Shown: one piece after another, positions 2,627 through 47,305 of the stretch
Layout of the letters: each line of letters starts with the position of its first letter
Numbering within the stretch: position 1 is the first letter of the stretch
Assembly (NCBI GenBank): GCA_964517765.1
Contig: CAZFEN010000005.1
Span: 5,430 to 69,429, forward strand
From: an uncultured Actinomycetota bacterium
GTDB lineage: Bacteria; Actinomycetota; Humimicrobiia; Humimicrobiales; Humimicrobiaceae
Reading direction: 5' to 3'
DNA: 64,000 bases
Notes under the pieces: model-generated
Database searches by the model: none
What the model was told of the DNA's origin: nothing
Seen by the model: only the letters and a program-made list of their open reading frames with translations
Program-made: the position numbers and the translations under genes

Positions 2627-2739
2627 TGGACCTTTCTATTGTTAGAATTATGTTATAAAATTGATTATAAATATACTTTTCTTATAAGGATTATTTTTAA
2701 CCACAATGGTTTTTATAGATTATAGTATGAGAAATAAAA

Positions 2740-2810
2740 TGGTTAGTCAAGTAAATTATATAAATATGTTAAATAAATGCCTTGACTAACCAGCATTTTA
2801 CTTTTATAAT
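2740..2810. promoter_or_regulatory. Divergent promoter region. 12-bp perfect inverted repeat TGGTTAGTCAAG (2740-2751) / CTTGACTAACCA (2781-2792), each arm carrying a TTGACT -35. Plus-strand TTGACT(2782-2787)-17-TATAAT(2805-2810); minus-strand TTGACT-17-TACTAT
   Basis: Read directly from the sequence. Consensus sigma70-like hexamers with 17-nt spacers; the arms are exact reverse complements. Confidence 0.5.
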
Positions 2811-3036
2811 AACTCAAATCAGTAACTATTATAAATCAGTAACTATAATAAAATTATTATAAAATTATTATATTATAAAATCCATATAAAAATTAATCTC
2901 AAGCAATAAATTAGCAAGTAGTTCAAATATCTTAAATCCTGGGGATAAATCGATAATGAAGGAAACAGTATTTTACATACTTTTAAAAATATTCCAAATA
3001 AATTTCAATATCAATATTAATATATGTAAAAATAAA

Positions 3037-3139
3037 GGGAGGAGATGTCTATGAAAAAAAGGGGTTTGCCTATCTAATATTAAACAAATCCCGGATTATA
3101 TTTTATCAAAAAAAGTTTATTTAAAAGGAGATGAAAAAG
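3037..3139 (+). promoter_or_regulatory. Conserved 5' leader, copy A of two: SD GGGAGGAG, 8-codon uORF ATGAAAAAAAGGGGTTTGCCTATCTAA (3051-3077), core TTAAACAAATCCCGGATTA (3080-3098), TTTATCAAAAAA, then SD AAAAGGAG
   Basis: About 75% identical to 8548-8668, which lies upstream of the second SBP gene. Alignment done by eye. Confidence 0.45.
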
Positions 3140-4225
3140 GTGAAAAAAATATTATTGTTTGTTCTAGTTATAGCTTTGATGACTTCAATGCTATTAATTG
3201 GAATTTCTTGTAAAGAAAAAGCAGCTGAGAAGGGAGAGCTTATTGGTGTGACTATGCCTACAAAATCCCTGCAGCGTTGGAATCAAGATGGTGATAACAT
3301 GAAGAAGCAGCTTGAAGCAAAGGGTTATACAGTAGACCTTCAGTATGCTGAAAATGATGTAAATGCCCAGCTCAGCCAGCTCGAAAATCAGATCACAATG
3401 GGTTGTAAAGTTCTGGTAATTGCTTCCATAGATGGTTCTGCTCTCTCAGAAGTGCTAAAGAAAGCCGTAGATGCAGGAATACAGTCCATTGCTTATGACA
3501 GACTTATCATGGAAACGCCTGATGTTGATTATTACACTTCATTCGATAACTTTAAGGTAGGCGCATTACAGGGAACATATATTGAAGAAGCTCTTGGTCT
3601 GGCAGATGGAGCTGGTCCGTTTAACATCGAACTTTTTGCAGGTTCTCCCGATGATAATAATGCTACATTATTCAATAATGGAGCAATGAGTATCATACAG
3701 CAATACATTGACAGCGGACAGCTGGTAGTAGTAAGTGGTCAGACTGATTTTCTGACAATAGCTACACCTGCATGGAAATCTGAAACCGCTCAGGCAAGAA
3801 TGGATAACCTTATCACAGCAAACTATGCAGGCGATACAAAGCTTGATGTTGTTCTTTGTCCGAATGACAGTACTGCAATAGGTGTTATAGCAGCACTTGA
3901 TAACGTTGGTTACGGAAGCGCAGATAAACCATATCCAGTAATAACCGGACAGGACTGTGACATAGCAAACGTACTTGCAATGATTGATGGTAAGCAATCG
4001 ATGTCAGTGTTTAAAGACACGCGTACGCTGGCTGCACAGGCAGTAGATATGGTAGATGCTATTATGAAGGGCGAGGAAGTCCCGGTAAACGATACAAGCA
4101 CATATGACAACGGTGTTAAGATAGTTCCTTCATTCCTGTGCGTGCCCGTATTTGCAAATGCAGATAATTACAAAGAGATTCTGATTGATAGCGGATATTA
4201 TACAGAAGATCAGCTTACGAAGTAA
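3140..4225 (+). CDS. xylF: D-xylose ABC transporter substrate-binding lipoprotein (ChvE/XylF family)
   Basis: Lipobox LLIGISC. Periplasmic sugar-binding fold similar to XylF/ChvE. The ORF-track ATG at 3131 abuts the SD AAGGAG with no spacer, so GTG 3140 (9-nt spacer, MKKILLF...) is the more plausible start. Confidence 0.85.
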   Translation: MKKILLFVLVIALMTSMLLIGISCKEKAAEKGELIGVTMPTKSLQRWNQDGDNMKKQLEAKGYTVDLQYAENDVNAQLSQLENQITMGCKVLVIASIDGSALSEVLKKAVDAGIQSIAYDRLIMETPDVDYYTSFDNFKVGALQGTYIEEALGLADGAGPFNIELFAGSPDDNNATLFNNGAMSIIQQYIDSGQLVVVSGQTDFLTIATPAWKSETAQARMDNLITANYAGDTKLDVVLCPNDSTAIGVIAALDNVGYGSADKPYPVITGQDCDIANVLAMIDGKQSMSVFKDTRTLAAQAVDMVDAIMKGEEVPVNDTSTYDNGVKIVPSFLCVPVFANADNYKEILIDSGYYTEDQLTK

Positions 4226-4262
4226 TTAATGGACAAAAAAGAGTAAGCTATTTCTTGTAAAG

Positions 4263-4303
4263 ACTGCAGGTCGAATATTTAAAAAGAGTATTCGACCTGC
4301 AGT
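4263..4303 (+). terminator. Intercistronic stem-loop: perfect 15-bp inverted repeat ACTGCAGGTCGAATA / TATTCGACCTGCAGT with 11-nt loop, between xylF and xylG
   Basis: Seen in sequence; followed by TTTAAAAAAA rather than a long T-run, so it is more likely an mRNA-stabilising or partial terminator than a full one. Confidence 0.5.
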
Positions 4304-4335
4304 TTAAAAAAACAATAAACAGGAGATCTTATTAA

Positions 4336-5877
4336 ATGCAATCAACGATTCTTGAGATGAAAAATATAACAAAGATTTTCCCTGGCGTTAAAGCGCTGGA
4401 TAATGTGAACATGGATGTAGTTGAAGGGGAAATCCATGCTCTTGTAGGTGAAAACGGTGCAGGAAAATCTACGCTCATGAATGTTCTTTCCGGAATACAT
4501 CCTTACGGTACTTATACAGGGAATATTATATATTACGGCAAGGAGTGTCATTTTAAAACTATAAGAGACAGCGAGCATGTTGGAATTGTTATTATTCATC
4601 AGGAATTGGAAATGGTGCCGTATCTATCTATTGCTGAAAATATATTTCTGGGCAATGAACGGGCAAAGAATAAAATAATAGATTGGGATAGAACTCATTA
4701 TGAGGCAAACCAGCTTTTAAAACGTGTGGGGCTGAATGAAGATACGCAGAAACCAGTAAAGGATATTGGTGTCGGAAAGCAGCAGCTCGTTGAAATAGCA
4801 AAGGTACTTTCGAAAAAAGTCAAATTATTAATACTTGATGAACCAACTGCAGCGCTGACTGATGAAGAATCCGAAAAACTTCTAAAACTATTACTTCAGT
4901 TCAAAGCAGAAGGCATAACATCAATAATGATTTCACATAAGATACATGAAGTCTCCAAAATTGCAGACCGGATAACTATCTTACGCGATGGGGGCACTAT
5001 AGAAACCCTAACAAAAGATATAGATGATATTGGAGAGGACAGGATAATAAAAGGAATGGTTGGCCGTCCGTTGACAGATAGATTCCCTAAACGTGTATCA
5101 AATATAGGAGAGGTAACTTTAGAGGTTAAAAACTGGAATGTCTATGATCCTATGGTCGAAGGCAGGCAGGTAATAAAAAATGCAAGCATAAATGTTCGTA
5201 AAGGTGAAGTTGTTGGTATTGCCGGTCTGATGGGTGCCGGGAGGACTGAATTTGTAATGAGTATTTTTGGAAAGGCATATGGCAGAAATATCTCCGGTCA
5301 AATAGTTTTAAACGGAAAAGAAATAAATCTTAAAAATATAAGAGCAGCTATAGATAACGGGATTGCATATTGTACGGAGGATAGAAAATCTGCGGGACTG
5401 GTGCTGATCAGTGACATAAAAACAAACCTGACACTTGCCGGACTTAAAAAAATCAGTAAAAAAACAGTTATTGATCAAAACAAAGAAATAAGAATGGCAG
5501 AAGAATATGTTAAGAAACTTAAAATTAAAACTTCTGGTTTAATGCAAAAAGCCGCTAATCTATCCGGTGGAAATCAGCAAAAACTTATACTTTCAAAATG
5601 GACATTTGTTGAACCTGAAATTCTGATACTGGACGAACCAACAAGAGGAATTGATGTTGGCGCAAAATATGAAATATACTTAATTATAAATGAACTGGTT
5701 TCTGAAGGTAAATCAGTGATTTTCATTTCTTCGGAGCTTCCTGAAATTATTGGTATGAGTGACCGTGTATTTGTCATGAATATGGGTCGCATAGTCGGCG
5801 AGCTTGAAGACAATGAAGCTACCCAGGAATCAATAATGAAATGTATAATGAAGAGTCAGAGTAAGGGAGTGCAATAA
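4336..5877 (+). CDS. xylG: Sugar ABC transporter ATP-binding protein with duplicated ATPase domains
   Basis: Two Walker A/signature sets (GENGAGKST; LSGGNQQK), 513 aa, MglA/XylG/RbsA architecture. Confidence 0.9.
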
Positions 5878-39771: not shown

Positions 39772-40824
39772 ATGACCGAGAAAAATGAAGAAAATAACGA
39801 TATAAATCCCAAACATATAAAAGTTGATATCGAGCTGGACAAAAGTCTTCGCCCCAGATCCATATCGGAATTTATAGGTCAGGAAAAAATAGTAGAAAAT
39901 CTTCTGATATTTATTAAATCTGCCAGAAAGAGGAAAGAGCCACTGGACCATGTTATTTTATCCGGTCCGCCGGGTCTTGGTAAAACATGTCTGGGAGAAA
40001 TAATTGCAAATGAGCTGGGAGTCGGTTTCAGGATCACTTCCGGTCCGGCTATTGAAAGAGCAGGAGATCTGGCCGCGATCCTTACCAATCTTGAGAAATT
40101 CGATGTTCTATTTGTTGATGAAATACACAGATTGAACAGGAGTGTGGAGGAGATTTTATATCCGGTCATGGAAGACTATAAGCTGGATATAATAATAGGA
40201 AAGGGTCCCTCGGCGAAATCTATTAGAATAGATATTGCACCTTTTACGATTATTGGTGCGACAACAAGAATAGGACTCGTGGCTTCACCTTTAAGGGATA
40301 GATTTGGAGTAAATATTAGATTGGACTATTACGATAAGAAAAATGTCATCAAAATTATTAAAAGATCCGCAGCCATACTTGGCATAGAAGTAACCGATGA
40401 GGGTGCCGAAGTCATTGCCGGAAGGAGCAGAGGAACACCGAGAATTGCAAACAGATTACTTCGCAGAGTCAGAGATTATGCGCTTATGTCCAATGACAGT
40501 GTGGTGGACAAAGAGATTGCCGAAAAGGCACTGGGCAGACTTGATATAGATAAACTGGGCCTGGATGTAGTGGATAAAAAAATTTTACATACACTGGTTC
40601 TAAAATTCGATGGCGGACCAGTAGGAGTAGGAACAATAGCGGCTTCAATAGGTGAAGAAGTAGATACCGTCGAAGATGTTTACGAACCATATCTTTTACA
40701 GCTTGGATTTGTGAAAAGGACCTCAAAGGGCAGGGTTGCAACCGGTCTGGCTTTTAAGTATATGGGAGTAAAAAAAGAAACCAATCCAGGACTTTTTGAT
40801 AAATTACCCGAAAATGAAGATTGA
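39772..40824 (+). CDS. ruvB: Holliday junction DNA helicase RuvB
   Basis: [13 protein letters not shown] and Walker A GPPGLGKT. Confidence 0.9.
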
Positions 40825-41830
40825 ATTATTCGATTACGAACTTCCCCGGAAATTTATAGCTCAAAAACCTCTCCCCCGAAGAGATGAATCAAAGCTTCTG
40901 ATACTGGAAAGAAAAACAGGCAATATAAAACATGATATTTTTTATAATATCCCCGACTATTTTAATAAAGGAGATGTCCTGGCAGTTAATGAAAGTAAGG
41001 TCATACGCTGCAGGATCATGGGGGAAAAAGAAGGAACCGGTGCAAATATTGAATGCTTTGTCCTGAACAGGATCAAAGATAATCAGTATATAGTACTGAT
41101 AAAGCCTTCCAAAAGGGTTCAACCTTCGGATAAAATCATAATAAGCAGCAAATATTTTTTTACTGTAAAGACAAAATTGGACTACGGCCGGGCAATAGTA
41201 GAATTCAATAATCCTGTTGGTCCTATTTTTAAACAATGCGGCAGGATACCGCTTCCTCCTTATATAAAAAGCGATAATATAGACGAATCACGTTATCAGA
41301 CCATATATGCCGGAAGAGAAGGTTCTTCTGCCGCTCCTACCGCAGGCCTTCATTTTTCGGATAAATTGATTAAGAGATTAAAAAACAGGGGTATCACAAT
41401 AGCAAAACTTGGCCTTGATATAGGATTGGACACGTTCAGACCAATAACGACAGATGAGATAGAAGAACATAAAATGCACAGCGAGCATTATTATATCAAT
41501 GAGACAGAAGCGCGAAAGATCAGACATGCAAAGGAGAAAGGGAAAAGGACCATTGCGGTAGGTACCACTTCGGTCAGAGTTCTGGAAACCCTGATGACGA
41601 GATACGGCAAGATAACAGGAGACAGTGGAACGACCGATATTTTTATATATCCCGGTTATGAATTTAAAGCAGCAGATTGGATGATCACCAATTTTCACCT
41701 TCCCCGATCAACTCTTCTGGTAATGGTATCCGCATTCGCAGGAAGAGAGAACATTTTGAATGCATACGAAAATGCAAAGCAAAATAGTTATAGATTTTAT
41801 AGTTTTGGGGACTGCATGTTAATAAAATGA
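40814..41830 (+). CDS. queA: S-adenosylmethionine:tRNA ribosyltransferase-isomerase QueA
   Basis: [20 protein letters not shown] canonical N-terminus; overlaps the ruvB end by 11 nt. Confidence 0.9.
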
Positions 41831-42009: not shown

Positions 42010-42534
42010 TTGGCTAATACAATAATGTGGACCCTGATAATCTTTGTTGCAAGAATTATCGATGTAAGTCTTGGTACCATAAGGGTAAATATGATAATAA
42101 GAAGAAAGAAAACCATTGCTGCTATGATAGGTTTTGTCGAGGTTACCATATTTATATCAATAATCGTAAGATTAATCAAAAATATCGACAATATTTACGG
42201 GATACTTGCTTATGGAGCTGGCTTTGCGGTGGGGACAGTTATAGGTATCTTGATATCCGAAAAATTATCACGCGATTTAGTAAGCACGAATATTATTTCC
42301 AGAAAATATAATGTGGAAATAAAAGAATTACTTTTAAAAGAGGATTTTGGATTTACCTGTTATAAAGGTGCCGGCAGACAGGGTGAGGTGGAGATCATTA
42401 ATGTGGTTTGCGGTCATGTCAGTCTTCAAAGATTGAACAAATTAATACACAATCGGGATCCGGGTGCTTTTGTAGTCAGTTATATGCTTGACAGAATACG
42501 AGGAGGATTTATCAGGGGATTAAAGAAGAAATAA
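42010..42534 (+). CDS. DUF2179/YitT-like small membrane protein
   Basis: N-terminal TM region with DVSLGTIRV, C-terminal DUF2179-like domain. TTG start 5 nt after the SD GGAGGT. Confidence 0.55.
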   Translation: MANTIMWTLIIFVARIIDVSLGTIRVNMIIRRKKTIAAMIGFVEVTIFISIIVRLIKNIDNIYGILAYGAGFAVGTVIGILISEKLSRDLVSTNIISRKYNVEIKELLLKEDFGFTCYKGAGRQGEVEIINVVCGHVSLQRLNKLIHNRDPGAFVVSYMLDRIRGGFIRGLKKK

Positions 42535-42709
42535 CAGCAATTAAGACTGTACAAATCCAAACTTTTATTTTTTTTTAACGTTTAATACAATGTAAAAAAT
42601 GAACATAAAAAATATTTTGTGAATTCTAGTTTACAAATGAAATGAAAGTATTAAGATAATGAAAAAGTTAGAATAAGATATTGATTTTAAAAAAGGGGTG
42701 CATTAAAAG

Positions 42710-44680
42710 ATGAAAGGAGATTCCTCAAATTGCGAACCTCCTCAAAAGAGTATCAATTCAAATTCATATAAGAAAACCATAGGGCCGATATCGAATCTGG
42801 AGGAGCATCTGAAGCCTGACTGGTGGAAAAATATTTTTAACTCAACTTACTTAAAAACCGATGGCGACGTCGTAGACGATAAACAAATCACCAGAAAAGA
42901 AGTAGATTTATTTATAAAAATTCTAAATTTATCCCCTGAAGACGGGATACTGGATTTGTGCTGCGGGCAGGGCAGGCATTGTATAGAGCTCGCAAACAGG
43001 GGTTTTAAACATGTCGAAGGACTTGATCGTTCGCATTACCTGATCCAGAGGGCAAAAAAGGAAAGCATGATGATAAAGTTCAGGGAAGGTGATGCAAGAA
43101 AGCTGCCTTATGCTCCGGATACATTTGATGCAGTGATGATTCTGGGAAATAGTTTTGGTTATTTCGAAACTTCCAAAGAAGATATGATGGTACTTAAAGA
43201 GGTCCTGAGGGTACTAAAACCCTGGGGGAGATTTTTAATTGATTTATCCGACGGAGAATATTTAAAGGAAAATATGAAATCGAGATCATGGGAGTGGATA
43301 GATAAAAAGTTTTTTGTATGTCGTGAACGGTCACTTTCTTTTGATAAAACCCGTTTGATTTCAAGAGAGATAATAAATGATGTCGATAACGGAGTCGTGA
43401 CGGATCAATTTTATGCCGAGAGGCTCTATACACAGGAAGAAATAATTGAATTTTTAAAACAAGCAGGTTTCAGCAATATTACGTCAAATGGAACGTTAAC
43501 ACCTGATTCAAAAAGAAATCAGGATCTGGGTATGACCGAAAGAAGAATCATCATATCTGCTATTGCCAAGAAGGAATGGTCTCCGGTAAAGGTAAAAAAA
43601 TCCCATTTAAAAAATGTTGCCGTTTTACTGGGTGACCCGAATAGAATAGATATTTTAAAGCCATTATATATGTTTGATGATGATGACCTGTATACTATCG
43701 ATCAATTAAAAGATTCCCTGAGAGATATCGAAAAAAATAATAACTATAAATTCCATTATCTTGATAACCACGAAACCATGATAAAGGACCTTATCAAAAC
43801 GCAGGAAAAGGGCAGGATTGATTTCGCATTCAATCTTTGTGACGAGGGTTATTACAATGATGCAAGAAAGGAGCTTCATGTACCTGCCTTACTGGACATT
43901 CTGGGAATTCCATATACCGGGTCCGAACCACAATGTCTTGCCCATTGTTATGATAAATCACTGGTGAGAGGTATTGCCGAAGAAATGGGGATTCCTACCC
44001 CGCAGGCTTTCTTTATAAAATCCGGGGATGCTTCATTCGAGGTACCCTTTGATTTCCCTATGTTTGTCAAGCCCAATTTCGGTGATTCAAGTTTTGGTAT
44101 AACCCAGAGGAATGTGGTTTATAGTATCGAAAAGACTTTAAATGTGATTTCTGAGATCCGTGACAAACTTGGATATGACAAACCGATTCTAATCGAGGAA
44201 TTTCTTTCAGGTAAAGATCTGAGCGTGGGGATAATCGGTAACTTTCCTGATTCTTATACCGTTCTTCCGATAATCGAAGAAGATTACTCGGAACTGCCCG
44301 CTGATCTTCCCAGGATCTGTGGTTATGAAGCAAAATGGCTTCAGGATTCACCTTACTGGAAGATTAAGTCCATACCTGCGGAATTACCGGCAGAAACCGA
44401 AAGAATTATTATAGGTTGTTCGCTGAGATTATTCGAAAGACTTGGATGCAGGGATTATGCACGTCTTGACTGGAGGTTGACCTCTAAAGGGAAACCAAAA
44501 CTATTGGAAGTAAATCCAAATCCGGGATGGTGCTGGGATGGTCATCTGGCTAAAATGTCAAAGATAAAGGATATACCATATAGCAGGATGCTGCTGATGA
44601 TTTTAAAAGAAGCCGAGAAAAGGTTCAAATCTCTGGAAAAAACTGACTTATCGAATTCAATAAAATCAATAGTAAAATAA
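42710..44680 (+). CDS. Fusion protein: N-terminal class I SAM-dependent methyltransferase plus C-terminal ATP-grasp (D-Ala-D-Ala ligase-like) domain
   Basis: Motif I ILDLCCGQGRH and post-I EGLDRS. C-terminal half has Ddl-like elements (LGIPYTGSEP, FPMFVKPNFGDSSFGI, ILIEEFLSGKDLSVGIIGN, LLEVNPNPGW); 656 aa. Confidence 0.7.
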   Translation: MKGDSSNCEPPQKSINSNSYKKTIGPISNLEEHLKPDWWKNIFNSTYLKTDGDVVDDKQITRKEVDLFIKILNLSPEDGILDLCCGQGRHCIELANRGFKHVEGLDRSHYLIQRAKKESMMIKFREGDARKLPYAPDTFDAVMILGNSFGYFETSKEDMMVLKEVLRVLKPWGRFLIDLSDGEYLKENMKSRSWEWIDKKFFVCRERSLSFDKTRLISREIINDVDNGVVTDQFYAERLYTQEEIIEFLKQAGFSNITSNGTLTPDSKRNQDLGMTERRIIISAIAKKEWSPVKVKKSHLKNVAVLLGDPNRIDILKPLYMFDDDDLYTIDQLKDSLRDIEKNNNYKFHYLDNHETMIKDLIKTQEKGRIDFAFNLCDEGYYNDARKELHVPALLDILGIPYTGSEPQCLAHCYDKSLVRGIAEEMGIPTPQAFFIKSGDASFEVPFDFPMFVKPNFGDSSFGITQRNVVYSIEKTLNVISEIRDKLGYDKPILIEEFLSGKDLSVGIIGNFPDSYTVLPIIEEDYSELPADLPRICGYEAKWLQDSPYWKIKSIPAELPAETERIIIGCSLRLFERLGCRDYARLDWRLTSKGKPKLLEVNPNPGWCWDGHLAKMSKIKDIPYSRMLLMILKEAEKRFKSLEKTDLSNSIKSIVK

Positions 44681-44896
44681 ATAGAAGCGTTATATCCTGC
44701 TCTTGGTATCGTAAATAAACCGCTGCTAAATCTCTCGAGATTACTTTTTTAAAGGAAATTCTGATACTACTAAATTTCGAAAATACAATATATCATATAG
44801 CATATCAAAAGAATTTTATGGTAATATCCAAAAAAAATCATGTTTACCATAAGAATATATAAAGGAAGAAAAAATTTTTAAAAAAGGAGAAGTGGG

Positions 44897-45613
44897 GTGG
44901 AAAAACAAGAAATAAATAAAATTTGTCAGTTATGCAAAAAACACAAGAAAAAAAGTGAATTACTTCCTCTTGAATTGATAGATCCTGAATTATTTGATTT
45001 CATTAAAGAGAAATATCCAGAATGCTCGGATCAAGGTTATATATGCAGAAATGATCTTAGTAATATAAGGCTTAAATATGTTGAAGAAGTTTTAAGGAAG
45101 GAAAAAGGTGAGCTTTCGGTTCTTGAAAAAGGGGTATTCGACAGTCTGAAGGAACAGGAAACAATTGCCAGGAATATAAACACAGAGTTTGAAGAACAAT
45201 CAACACTGGGGCAGAAATTATCAGATAAAATTGCAGCATTTGGTGGAAGCTGGAAGTTTATAATGATTTTTTTTGGGATTATCGTTGTCTGGATGATTAT
45301 AAATTCAGTAAGTCTTGCCGGGAAAAATTTCGACCCTTATCCTTTTATACTCCTGAATCTTGTACTTTCCTGTCTGGCTGCAGTACAGGCTCCTGTAATA
45401 CTTATGAGCCAGAACAGGCAGGAAGCCAAAGACAGATTGAGATCCAGGAACGATTATATCGTAAATCTGAAGGCTGAACTTGAGATAAGAAGTTTGAATG
45501 AAAAGATGGAGAATTTACTGGTTTATCAGTGGCAAAGGTTAATGGAAATACAAAAAATACAGACTGATATAATGAATGAGCTATCCGAAAAAAGCAGACG
45601 AAGAAATCCCTAG
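44897..45613 (+). CDS. DUF1003 family membrane protein with N-terminal Cys-rich (zinc-ribbon-like) region
   Basis: FGGSWKFI...LSCLAAVQAPVILMSQNRQEAKD matches the DUF1003 signature. N-terminal CQLCKK...CSDQGYICRND. GTG start after the SD AAGGAG. Confidence 0.65.
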   Translation: MEKQEINKICQLCKKHKKKSELLPLELIDPELFDFIKEKYPECSDQGYICRNDLSNIRLKYVEEVLRKEKGELSVLEKGVFDSLKEQETIARNINTEFEEQSTLGQKLSDKIAAFGGSWKFIMIFFGIIVVWMIINSVSLAGKNFDPYPFILLNLVLSCLAAVQAPVILMSQNRQEAKDRLRSRNDYIVNLKAELEIRSLNEKMENLLVYQWQRLMEIQKIQTDIMNELSEKSRRRNP

Positions 45614-45647: not shown

Positions 45648-46790
<1,143 letters not shown>

Positions 46791-46870
46791 ATATATATTT
46801 GCAAAATTTTAAAAAAAGTTAATAATAGTAATATTTGATTTTAAAAAAGGTTATTCTAAAAGGAGTGATT

Positions 46871-47305
46871 ATGAAGTTATCAAAGAAGATTATTAGTATA
46901 TTAATTATCAGCATACTGGTAATAGCAATAGGTTCTTTATCTGTTGCATGTCTTCCGACAACAACAACCGGAGAGGGAACAACAACCGGAGACACGACAG
47001 CTGAAGGAACCGAAACTCAGCCAGTGACCGGATGGAAAGCAATATTTGCAAACTATGGGACATGGATCTGGTTGGCAATTTTAGTGGTAGCATTTTACTT
47101 TTTACTGATAAGGCCGCAAAGAGTAAGATCCAAAAAAGCCCAGGAAATGATGGCCAGCCTGCAGAGAGGCGATGAAGTCACCACTATAGGAGGATTTCAT
47201 GGAAGGATCAAGGATATAAGAGATGATGCAATTATAATTACCATTGCAAGTGGTGTTGACGTAAAGATAAGTAAAAGCGCTGTTACGAAAAAATCAGTTC
47301 AGTAA
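46871..47305 (+). CDS. yajC: Preprotein translocase subunit YajC (with extended Thr/Gly-rich N-terminal region)
   Basis: LLIRPQRVRSKKAQEMMASLQRGDEVTTIGGFHGRI matches the YajC core. Met 46871 follows the SD AAAAGGAG. Confidence 0.8.
   Translation: MKLSKKIISILIISILVIAIGSLSVACLPTTTTGEGTTTGDTTAEGTETQPVTGWKAIFANYGTWIWLAILVVAFYFLLIRPQRVRSKKAQEMMASLQRGDEVTTIGGFHGRIKDIRDDAIIITIASGVDVKISKSAVTKKSVQ

Follow-up and report, generated by a model that had tools for sequence, protein, structure and literature searches.

What does a single polypeptide that joins a methyltransferase to an ATP-grasp ligase make, and why is its gene found between queA and tgt? The question is raised by a 64,000-nucleotide (nt) stretch from an uncultured Actinomycetota bacterium (assembly GCA_964517765.1, contig CAZFEN010000005.1, positions 5,430 to 69,429), here called the window, in which three genes separate queA from tgt within the block ruvCAB-queA ... 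tgt-yajC-secDF-recJ-relA. A preliminary description of this DNA had noticed the three wedged genes, and all three are indeed present, on the plus strand, at the coordinates collected in Table 1. It had also remarked that the middle gene encodes a fusion that is not a textbook enzyme. We found that this fusion belongs to a large and very highly conserved family, as yet uncharacterised, that is present in bacteria, archaea and some early-branching eukaryotes. As to its function, we believe with about even confidence that it is a self-contained two-step enzyme, one step of which would form an amide between a carboxylate and a cationic amine, perhaps a polyamine, and the other of which would place a methyl group on the nitrogen of a free amine.

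The N-terminal half is matched by the Pfam families Methyltransf_25, Methyltransf_31 and Methyltransf_11 over residues ~78-195, and in a 20-sequence alignment of the fusion family the S-adenosylmethionine (SAM) motif I (LDLCCGQGRH, residues 81-90), D106 and D128 are invariant, which bears out its earlier assignment to the class I SAM methyltransferases. It has the Rossmann-like seven-strand core with SAM motifs I-III, and a four-strand beta cap (192-238) is inserted after strand 5. An N-terminal lid (W38, W39, Y47, K49, T50 and D51) and a GNSFGYF stretch (146-152) are conserved as well. This half thus looks like a catalytically intact class I SAM methyltransferase of the beta-cap class. Among characterised proteins, the nearest to it is the bacillithiol N-methyltransferase NmbA (PDB 9RI2; PMC12719100), with 31% identity over 204 amino acids (aa); the C-methyltransferase PsmD is also among the matches. 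Because the characterised beta-cap members, NmbA being the closest, mostly methylate free amino groups, N-methylation of a free amine would be the expected reaction, and by analogy with these nearest relatives the methyl acceptor would be a nitrogen. The fusion is not an orthologue of NmbA, since 31% lies below the 35% floor of the NmbA similarity network, and its hosts include archaea and eukaryotes, in which the bacillithiol pathway was not found (PMC12719100). Compared with NmbA and the related beta-cap methyltransferases CypM, CcbJ, DesVI and GSMT, it possesses in addition the conserved N-terminal lid and the attached ligase.

The C-terminal half adopts the three-domain ATP-grasp fold of the D-Ala-D-Ala ligases (Ddl/Van). 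Pfam Dala_Dala_lig_C matches residues 445-631, and the NCBIfam Ddl models align from ~343 to 636 with scores of about half their curated cut-offs (121.6 bits against 243 for the best model, 117.5 against 245.65 for TIGR01205). We compared this half with Escherichia coli DdlB, using a reference sequence with which the residue numbering of the literature agreed. DdlB K97, K144, S150, E180, K215, R255, D257, E270, N272 and G276 correspond to the invariant K416, K454, S460, E496, K542, R585, D587, E600, N602 and G606 of the fusion. The C-terminal half thus has a complete Ddl fold with all ATP-, Mg2+- and transition-state-binding residues, as the preliminary description had proposed. Since all catalytic residues are intact, the ligase half should activate a carboxylate as an acyl-phosphate and then join it to a nucleophile.

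The residues of the D-Ala site, by contrast, are swapped: H63 is replaced by C377, Y216 by W543, S281 by G611 and L282 by H612, the D-Ala1 ligand E15 has no equivalent, and S150 (S460) is the only member of the D-Ala-binding set that is retained. The fusion is therefore not a D-Ala-D-Ala ligase, and a cell-envelope role as a D-Ala-D-Ala enzyme, suggested earlier, is contradicted. New motifs are found instead, with an invariant acidic/aromatic set (D309, D314, D323, D325, D326, D331, D378, E379, W543, Y549, W607, W609, D610 and H612 in the 20-sequence alignment) and a family signature that reads GDP..PD..KP...FDxDD, NLCDEG, GYEAKW and NPNPGWCWDGH. The distance from Ddl and VanA (EC 6.3.2.4) is considerable, at only 20-26% identity, and unlike these enzymes the fusion is joined to a methyltransferase, with no mur or ftsQ gene seen adjacent to it. 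A structure predicted from an 80-sequence alignment reached a pLDDT (predicted local distance difference test) of 92.8; an earlier model from 20 near-identical sequences had reached 63.

A database search with the full-length fusion returned more than 5,600 matches. The best 120 all carry both the methyltransferase and the Dala_Dala_lig_C domain; they are 64-90% identical to the query, of which 94% or more is covered in every case but one. In a scan of one genome per species, fusion loci were confirmed in at least 585 species genomes. The architecture, which had been considered unusual, is thus not so in its occurrence. It is nevertheless no textbook enzyme: no solved full-length structure and no specific name was found, and literature searches on the architecture, on the Pfam/DUF names and on low-molecular-weight (LMW) thiol terms yielded neither a characterised member nor a paper on the family. 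Of the possibility raised at the outset, that the fusion belongs to a widespread and already characterised family, only the first part is true.

The closest relatives among the matches listed (82-92% identity) are metagenome-assembled genomes of Actinomycetota, including Candidatus Hydromicrobium americanum, a lineage of low GC (guanine plus cytosine) content to which the window can accordingly be assigned. At 61-68% identity the fusion is carried by Planctomycetota, Atribacterota, Thermotogota, Sumerlaeota, Desulfobacterota, Chlamydiae and Patescibacteria and, among the archaea, by Asgard archaea, methanogens, Halobacteria and Nitrososphaerales. The hosts include sediment, subsurface, thermophilic and halophilic lineages and are for the most part anaerobes. 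Versions rich in inserts are found in the choanoflagellate Monosiga brevicollis and in the zoosporic fungi Gonapodya, Paraphysoderma, Blastocladiella and Polyrhizophydium under names such as 'hypothetical' or 'ATP-grasp domain-containing' only; cultured Thermotoga strains carry the fusion as a 'methyltransferase domain-containing protein', and some sources name it 'D-alanine-D-alanine ligase'. In assembly GCA_000442015.1, which we take to be Rozella, the homolog P0144 (648 aa) spans 2,003 nt (L179, positions 2731-4733) without straight-through translation; this gene probably contains an intron and would then be one more eukaryotic carrier.

Mean column identity is 76% across the 20-sequence cross-group alignment, and even the linker is conserved. 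The nearest neighbours of a fusion sequence mostly belong to the same phylum and identity between phyla levels off at ~65%, with no split between bacteria and archaea (66% between archaea, 65% between bacteria, 64% across the two). We read this plateau as the result of transfer between domains of life together with very strong purifying selection. The full-length fusion was absent from 72,556 plasmids, 50,697 phage records and IMG/VR, and carriage by mobile elements was therefore rejected. When 1.84 billion cluster representatives were searched exhaustively, 627 matched at E<=1e-30, full-length fusions persisting down to 35% identity. This persistence, together with one locus (L082) in which a 300-aa methyltransferase gene overlaps by 4 nt a following Ddl-like gene (348 aa), the order being that of the fusion, argues for a functional coupling of the two halves.

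Stand-alone Ddl-like relatives without an adjacent methyltransferase also exist. Two of them, of 361 and 383 aa and 41-42% identical to the window protein, lie in tandem at L084:8001-10536 (also in L085) on an archaeal contig that looks Asgard-like, with an Arf/Ras-type small GTPase and ribosomal protein S26e. A 1210-aa protein of Ca. Lokiarchaeia (P0154) has no methyltransferase; its residues 862-1203 correspond to the ligase half, with 55% identity to the window protein, and are fused to a long leucine-rich-repeat region. At L095:6138-10770 (also in L096) a tight operon, its stop and start codons overlapping, codes for a tandem SET-domain protein of 288 aa followed by two fusion paralogs, the first divergent with a degenerate SAM motif I (LDAACATGS), the second canonical and 44% identical to the window protein; its contig has 62% GC and the operon lies beside WXG100 and FtsK/SpoIIIE genes. 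A small open reading frame (ORF) upstream of some stand-alone Ddl-like genes (L086-L089) was considered as a substrate or carrier and rejected, being a signal-peptide protein of one organism with no similarity to the fusion. The contexts of the divergent subfamilies (L094, L177, L178 and L179) and of the stand-alone Ddl-like genes (L083-L089) yielded no hint as to function.

The gene neighbourhoods were examined at 155 loci from genome and metagenome scans, collapsed to 81 lineages at 80% fusion identity, neighbours being counted per lineage. No obligate partner was found among the 81 lineages, and for this reason we read the fusion as a stand-alone enzyme. The most informative neighbour is a homolog of deoxyhypusine synthase, found near the fusion in four lineages; in three bacterial phyla the neighbours are homospermidine genes (speY/speB). 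The bacterial homolog of this enzyme is SpeY, which together with a SpeB-type ureohydrolase and arginine decarboxylase leads to homospermidine via bis(guanidino)homospermidine (PMC13625781). In a member of the Spirochaetales (L079) an arginase-family gene (speB) and speY precede the fusion, the latter by a gap of 13 nt, and in a member of the Desulfobacteraceae (L075) the order is speY, a dksA-like gene and the fusion. A clostridial locus (L008) has on one strand genes for a pyruvoyl arginine decarboxylase, SpeY, an arginase-family protein (SpeB), MarC, an MFS transporter, an unannotated 124-aa ORF, a RimK-like ATP-grasp protein, a CDP-alcohol phosphatidyltransferase, a GT4 glycosyltransferase, the fusion, CorA and a further MFS transporter.

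Canonical CorA, with the YGMNF motif, adjoins the fusion at 11 loci from 6-7 lineages, cultured Thermotoga among them; those at L008, L044, L090, L108, L121, L159 and L165 are on Thermotogota, Atribacterota and Clostridia-type contigs. Compared across phyla with the copy of L008, those beside the fusion share 51-77% identity with it, one weak match at 25% excepted. This seems high for CorA between phyla, and CorA and the fusion may travel, or be kept, as a pair. Other recurrent neighbours are MFS transporters (4-5 lineages), GT4 glycosyltransferases (5) and TrkA_C (2). The DUF5698/DUF2179 gene that precedes the fusion in the window adjoins it in six lineages, namely the clade of the window and five others. 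Outside the clade it was seen at four loci of a first sample vs 0.2-0.6 expected, and an independent second sample added four more loci from two lineages. A co-transferred DUF2179-fusion cassette was rejected, as the DUF2179 copies are 29-36% identical across phyla vs 63-67% for the fusion. A trmD signal at seven loci was likewise discarded when it collapsed to one planctomycete syntenic block. The mur and ftsQ families are not among the recurrent neighbours. No deacetylase or other Bsh-like gene recurs in the neighbourhoods, to which this search was confined. A conserved small ORF partner, as would be expected of a tailoring pair for ribosomally synthesised and post-translationally modified peptides (a graspetide ATP-grasp enzyme with a CypM-like N-methyltransferase), was not seen beside the fusion, ORFs below 70 aa not having been searched systematically. 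Within that scope the missing partner speaks against such a pair, and so does the extreme conservation across phyla, since a variable distribution limited to single clades would be expected of it.

Two further observations concern these loci. L008:5082-7857 and L108:45-2233 share beside the fusion a trio consisting of the RimK-like ATP-grasp protein (273 aa), the CDP-alcohol phosphatidyltransferase (229 aa) and the GT4 glycosyltransferase (410-430 aa), with CorA and MFS coming next; the trio could be a head-group or solute pathway. At L149 a 462-aa fusion of an NTP-transferase to a CDP-alcohol phosphatidyltransferase, an architecture presumably like that of di-myo-inositol-phosphate synthase, is encoded 503 nt upstream of the methyltransferase–ATP-grasp gene.

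In the mechanism that we propose, the ligase half would take an amino-acid-like carboxylate and a cationic amine and join the two; the methyltransferase half would N-methylate a free amine of the ligation product or of a precursor, the outcome being an N-methylated amide conjugate. Gene neighbourhoods in other phyla hint at a polyamine as the amine partner, for instance homospermidine, agmatine or a related compound. The speY/speB contexts and the CorA, MFS and TrkA_C neighbours make polyamine or cation homeostasis the most likely physiological area of the fusion, to which the product would then belong. The upstream DUF5698/DUF2179 protein may be loosely linked to the fusion and serve, for instance, to transport its substrate or product. 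A small molecule that is methylated and amide-linked, an idea put forward in general terms in the preliminary description on the strength of the two domain assignments, both of them correct, thus still gives the best reading. A precedent for this kind of chemistry is glutathionylspermidine/trypanothione synthetase, a bifunctional protein in which the ATP-dependent ligation of a carboxylate to a polyamine amine proceeds through an acyl-phosphate and the partner is an amidase. The likeness concerns the kind of reaction that is proposed here. The synthetase belongs to another sequence family, the fusion has no GSP_synth or CHAP Pfam match, and its partner domain is a methyltransferase and not an amidase.

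Several points weigh against this proposal. The polyamine link comes from 3 bacterial lineages of ~81, the 64 kb of the window hold neither a polyamine gene nor CorA, and five further contexts of divergent or split fusions contained nothing related to polyamines. The neighbour enrichments are uncorrected for the number of families that could have been tested. The use of the acidic/aromatic pocket as an amine site is deduced from the sequence, and the geometry between the two domains of the predicted model is uncertain (predicted template modelling score, pTM, 0.65). Moreover, ~65% identity between phyla over the full length, surfaces included, is unusual for a small-molecule accessory enzyme and would also fit a macromolecular substrate. 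The furthest-reaching form of the proposal, which we put forward as a speculation with rather low confidence, is that the product is an undescribed metabolite, an N-methylated aminoacyl or acyl conjugate of a polyamine or cationic amine. It would be widespread in cation and stress homeostasis, in anaerobic bacteria, in archaea including Asgard and in early-branching opisthokonts, and made by one horizontally mobile gene held at ~65% identity across the domains of life.

A polyamine might not be needed at all if the ligase joined two ordinary amino acids in the way of an L- or D-amino-acid ligase, as the Ddl fold normally does, and the methyltransferase acted on the free alpha-amine of the dipeptide, as NmbA, CypM and GSMT do on theirs. 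The product would be an osmolyte or buffer, in the manner of carnosine and anserine or of the dipeptide N-acetylglutaminylglutamine amide (NAGGN). The pair carnosine synthase and carnosine N-methyltransferase follows the same logic, with ligation by an ATP-grasp enzyme and then SAM-dependent N-methylation giving a small cytoplasmic solute, although these are separate, animal-specific enzymes of unrelated subfamilies and the methyl group is placed on an imidazole nitrogen (PMC3660329). The sediment, subsurface, thermophilic and halophilic hosts, the MFS, CorA and TrkA_C neighbours, and an NTP-transferase + CDP-alcohol-phosphatidyltransferase gene near the fusion in L149, L008 and L108 would all suit such a solute. 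However, the carboxylate-holding S281 and L282 of Ddl have become G611 and H612 amid W607, W609 and D610, which is unlike a carboxylate site, no osmoregulated operon context was found, and the speY/speB contexts point to amines that lack a carboxylate. We therefore consider a compatible solute of this kind unlikely. The extreme conservation of the fusion favours a macromolecular target. The ATP-grasp half would then act like RimK, TTL or LysX and attach an amino acid to some conserved protein, or else ligate a protein carboxylate to an amine, and the methyltransferase would methylate the N-terminus or a lysine of that target, for instance a translation component. The SET-domain operon of L095 and L096 also favours this idea. 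The combination of a closest fold or sequence match to RimK or LysX with an adjacent gene for a substrate or carrier was not found for the fusion, and protein modification seems to us unlikely as well.

The kinship with NmbA also brings to mind LMW thiols. The ligase would place cysteine on an amine scaffold and the NmbA-like half would methylate the cysteine amine, giving an N-methyl-cysteine thiol in anaerobes that lack glutathione, bacillithiol and mycothiol. GT4, present near the fusion in five lineages and directly upstream of it in L008, is the glycosyltransferase family of BshA, most host lineages are anaerobes, and we know of no dedicated LMW thiol described for them. The C-terminal ATP-grasp module of GshF (GshAB), which makes glutathione, is closer to Ddl than to GshB. 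GshF provides a precedent for a Ddl-type ATP-grasp domain fused into a small-molecule pathway, with two consecutive steps on one polypeptide and the ATP-grasp module at the C-terminus (PMC7278568). Its N-terminal partner is a gamma-glutamylcysteine ligase, in contrast to the methyltransferase of the fusion, which has no GshA-type Pfam match, and GshF structures are not among the structure matches listed for the fusion sequence. The NmbA identity of only 31%, the view of the NmbA authors that homologs which do not cluster with NmbA probably methylate other acceptors (PMC12719100), the lack of recurrent Bsh-like neighbours and a ligase half in which nothing points to cysteine make a thiol very unlikely. 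Even less can be said for a variant cell-wall ligase making D-Ala-D-Ala or D-Ala-D-X, or for an enzyme related to tRNA or queuosine. The Pfam and NCBIfam Ddl matches, the ligase name used by some sources and the position between queA and tgt speak for such roles. They are set against the replaced D-Ala-binding residues, the scores at half of the curated cut-offs and a distribution that is not tied to murein, with carriers among Asgard archaea, methanogens, Halobacteria, Nitrososphaerales, Monosiga and chytrid fungi; to our knowledge archaea and eukaryotes do not make murein. As to queuosine, the queA/tgt context is confined to the clade of the window, and in close relatives of the window the genes found in this interval are unrelated and vary. 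A role related to queuosine, like that of a true Ddl, is thus effectively excluded, and a two-step enzyme acting on a cationic amine is still the reading that we prefer.

Why, then, is the gene found between queA and tgt? Among the 10 loci of the clade, queA lies upstream of the fusion in 7 and tgt downstream in 9, a missing flank being due to a contig end. Neither gene occurs near the fusion in any of the 80 other lineages, so that a tRNA-related substrate, as had been suggested, finds no support. The DUF5698/DUF2179 gene precedes the fusion in every clade locus in which this flank is visible, except L149, a clade member whose fusion is 81% identical and lies in a different genomic context. 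What had been described as an insertion in this genome is an old lineage-specific arrangement of a Ca. Hydromicrobium-like Actinomycetota clade and not peculiar to this genome. A recent horizontal insertion was rejected, since the composition is not anomalous (the three-gene block has the same GC content as its flanks) and relatives have the same arrangement. The DUF1003 gene, on the other hand, is limited to the window, L001, L003 and L171 and is absent from L002, L005, L007, L162 and all other lineages; its protein is probably incidental and not part of the system. The Cys-rich N-terminus ascribed to it was confirmed, all four Cys being kept in its homologs. The idea that the two membrane proteins form an export or sensing module fails for DUF1003, present in only about half of the clade loci, and keeps a weak basis for DUF5698/DUF2179 in its recurrence in six independent lineages.

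Table 1. Positions (in window coordinates) of the genes from queA to tgt and of the two modules of the fusion
Feature	Position	Strand	Match	Remark
queA	40796..41830	+	Pfam Queuosine_synth, E 4e-122	left border of the variable interval, context only
DUF5698 + DUF2179 (UPF0316-type) membrane protein, 174 aa	42010..42534	+	Pfam	
methyltransferase–ATP-grasp fusion, bifunctional, 656 aa	42710..44680	+		core of the finding
methyltransferase module, residues ~25-290 of the fusion	42782..43579	+		
Ddl-fold ATP-grasp ligase module, residues ~300-640 of the fusion	43607..44629	+		
DUF1003 membrane protein, 238 aa, N-terminal four-Cys module (CxxC...Cx6C)	44897..45613	+	Pfam, E 9e-40	
tgt	45672..46790	+	Pfam TGT, E 3e-148	right border of the variable interval, context only

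The gaps among the three genes measure 175-216 nt. Promoter and terminator matches at the locus were not above background and thus gave no operon signal, and an Rfam search of the intergenic regions detected no riboswitch or RNA element at E<=1. A defence system was considered and dismissed, the sole PADLOC match being a generic methyltransferase similarity to mad2. In relatives the queA-tgt interval also contains genes for PAS-HD-GYP proteins, a radical-SAM/SPASM protein, heliorhodopsin and DUF6512, and this variability marks it as a plastic spot. The radical-SAM/SPASM gene (L001:6823-7914, plus strand) lies, in the closest relative of the window, between the DUF5698/DUF2179 gene and the fusion. 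In L001 and L002 another DUF5698/DUF2179 paralog (178 aa, minus strand) follows the fusion after 10 nt. The heliorhodopsin gene (L003:6256-7068, minus strand; Pfam E 1.5e-93), beside that of a PAS-HD-GYP protein, is an unexpected cargo in what is apparently a sediment or groundwater Actinomycetota lineage. Downstream of tgt in the window, a yajC-like ORF (46835-47305), whose TTG start is uncertain, has a long N-terminal extension and, after the membrane anchor, a low-complexity stretch rich in Thr, Gly and Glu (TTTGEGTTTGDTTAEGTETQ).

The value of these observations lies in the family and not in this particular locus. With identity kept at ~65% across phyla and across the divide of bacteria and archaea, the fusion is among the better conserved proteins of unknown function. 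The chemistry of the two halves, ATP-dependent amide formation and SAM-dependent methylation, is clear, and what is left to find is essentially the substrate pair, for which the speY/speB, CorA and MFS contexts provide a concrete shortlist. As a single gene without an obligate partner it should be easy to express and to assay. Its product could prove to be a hitherto undescribed thiol, osmolyte or polyamine derivative of wide occurrence among subsurface and anaerobic microbes, and its identification would correct thousands of misleading 'D-alanine-D-alanine ligase' annotations.

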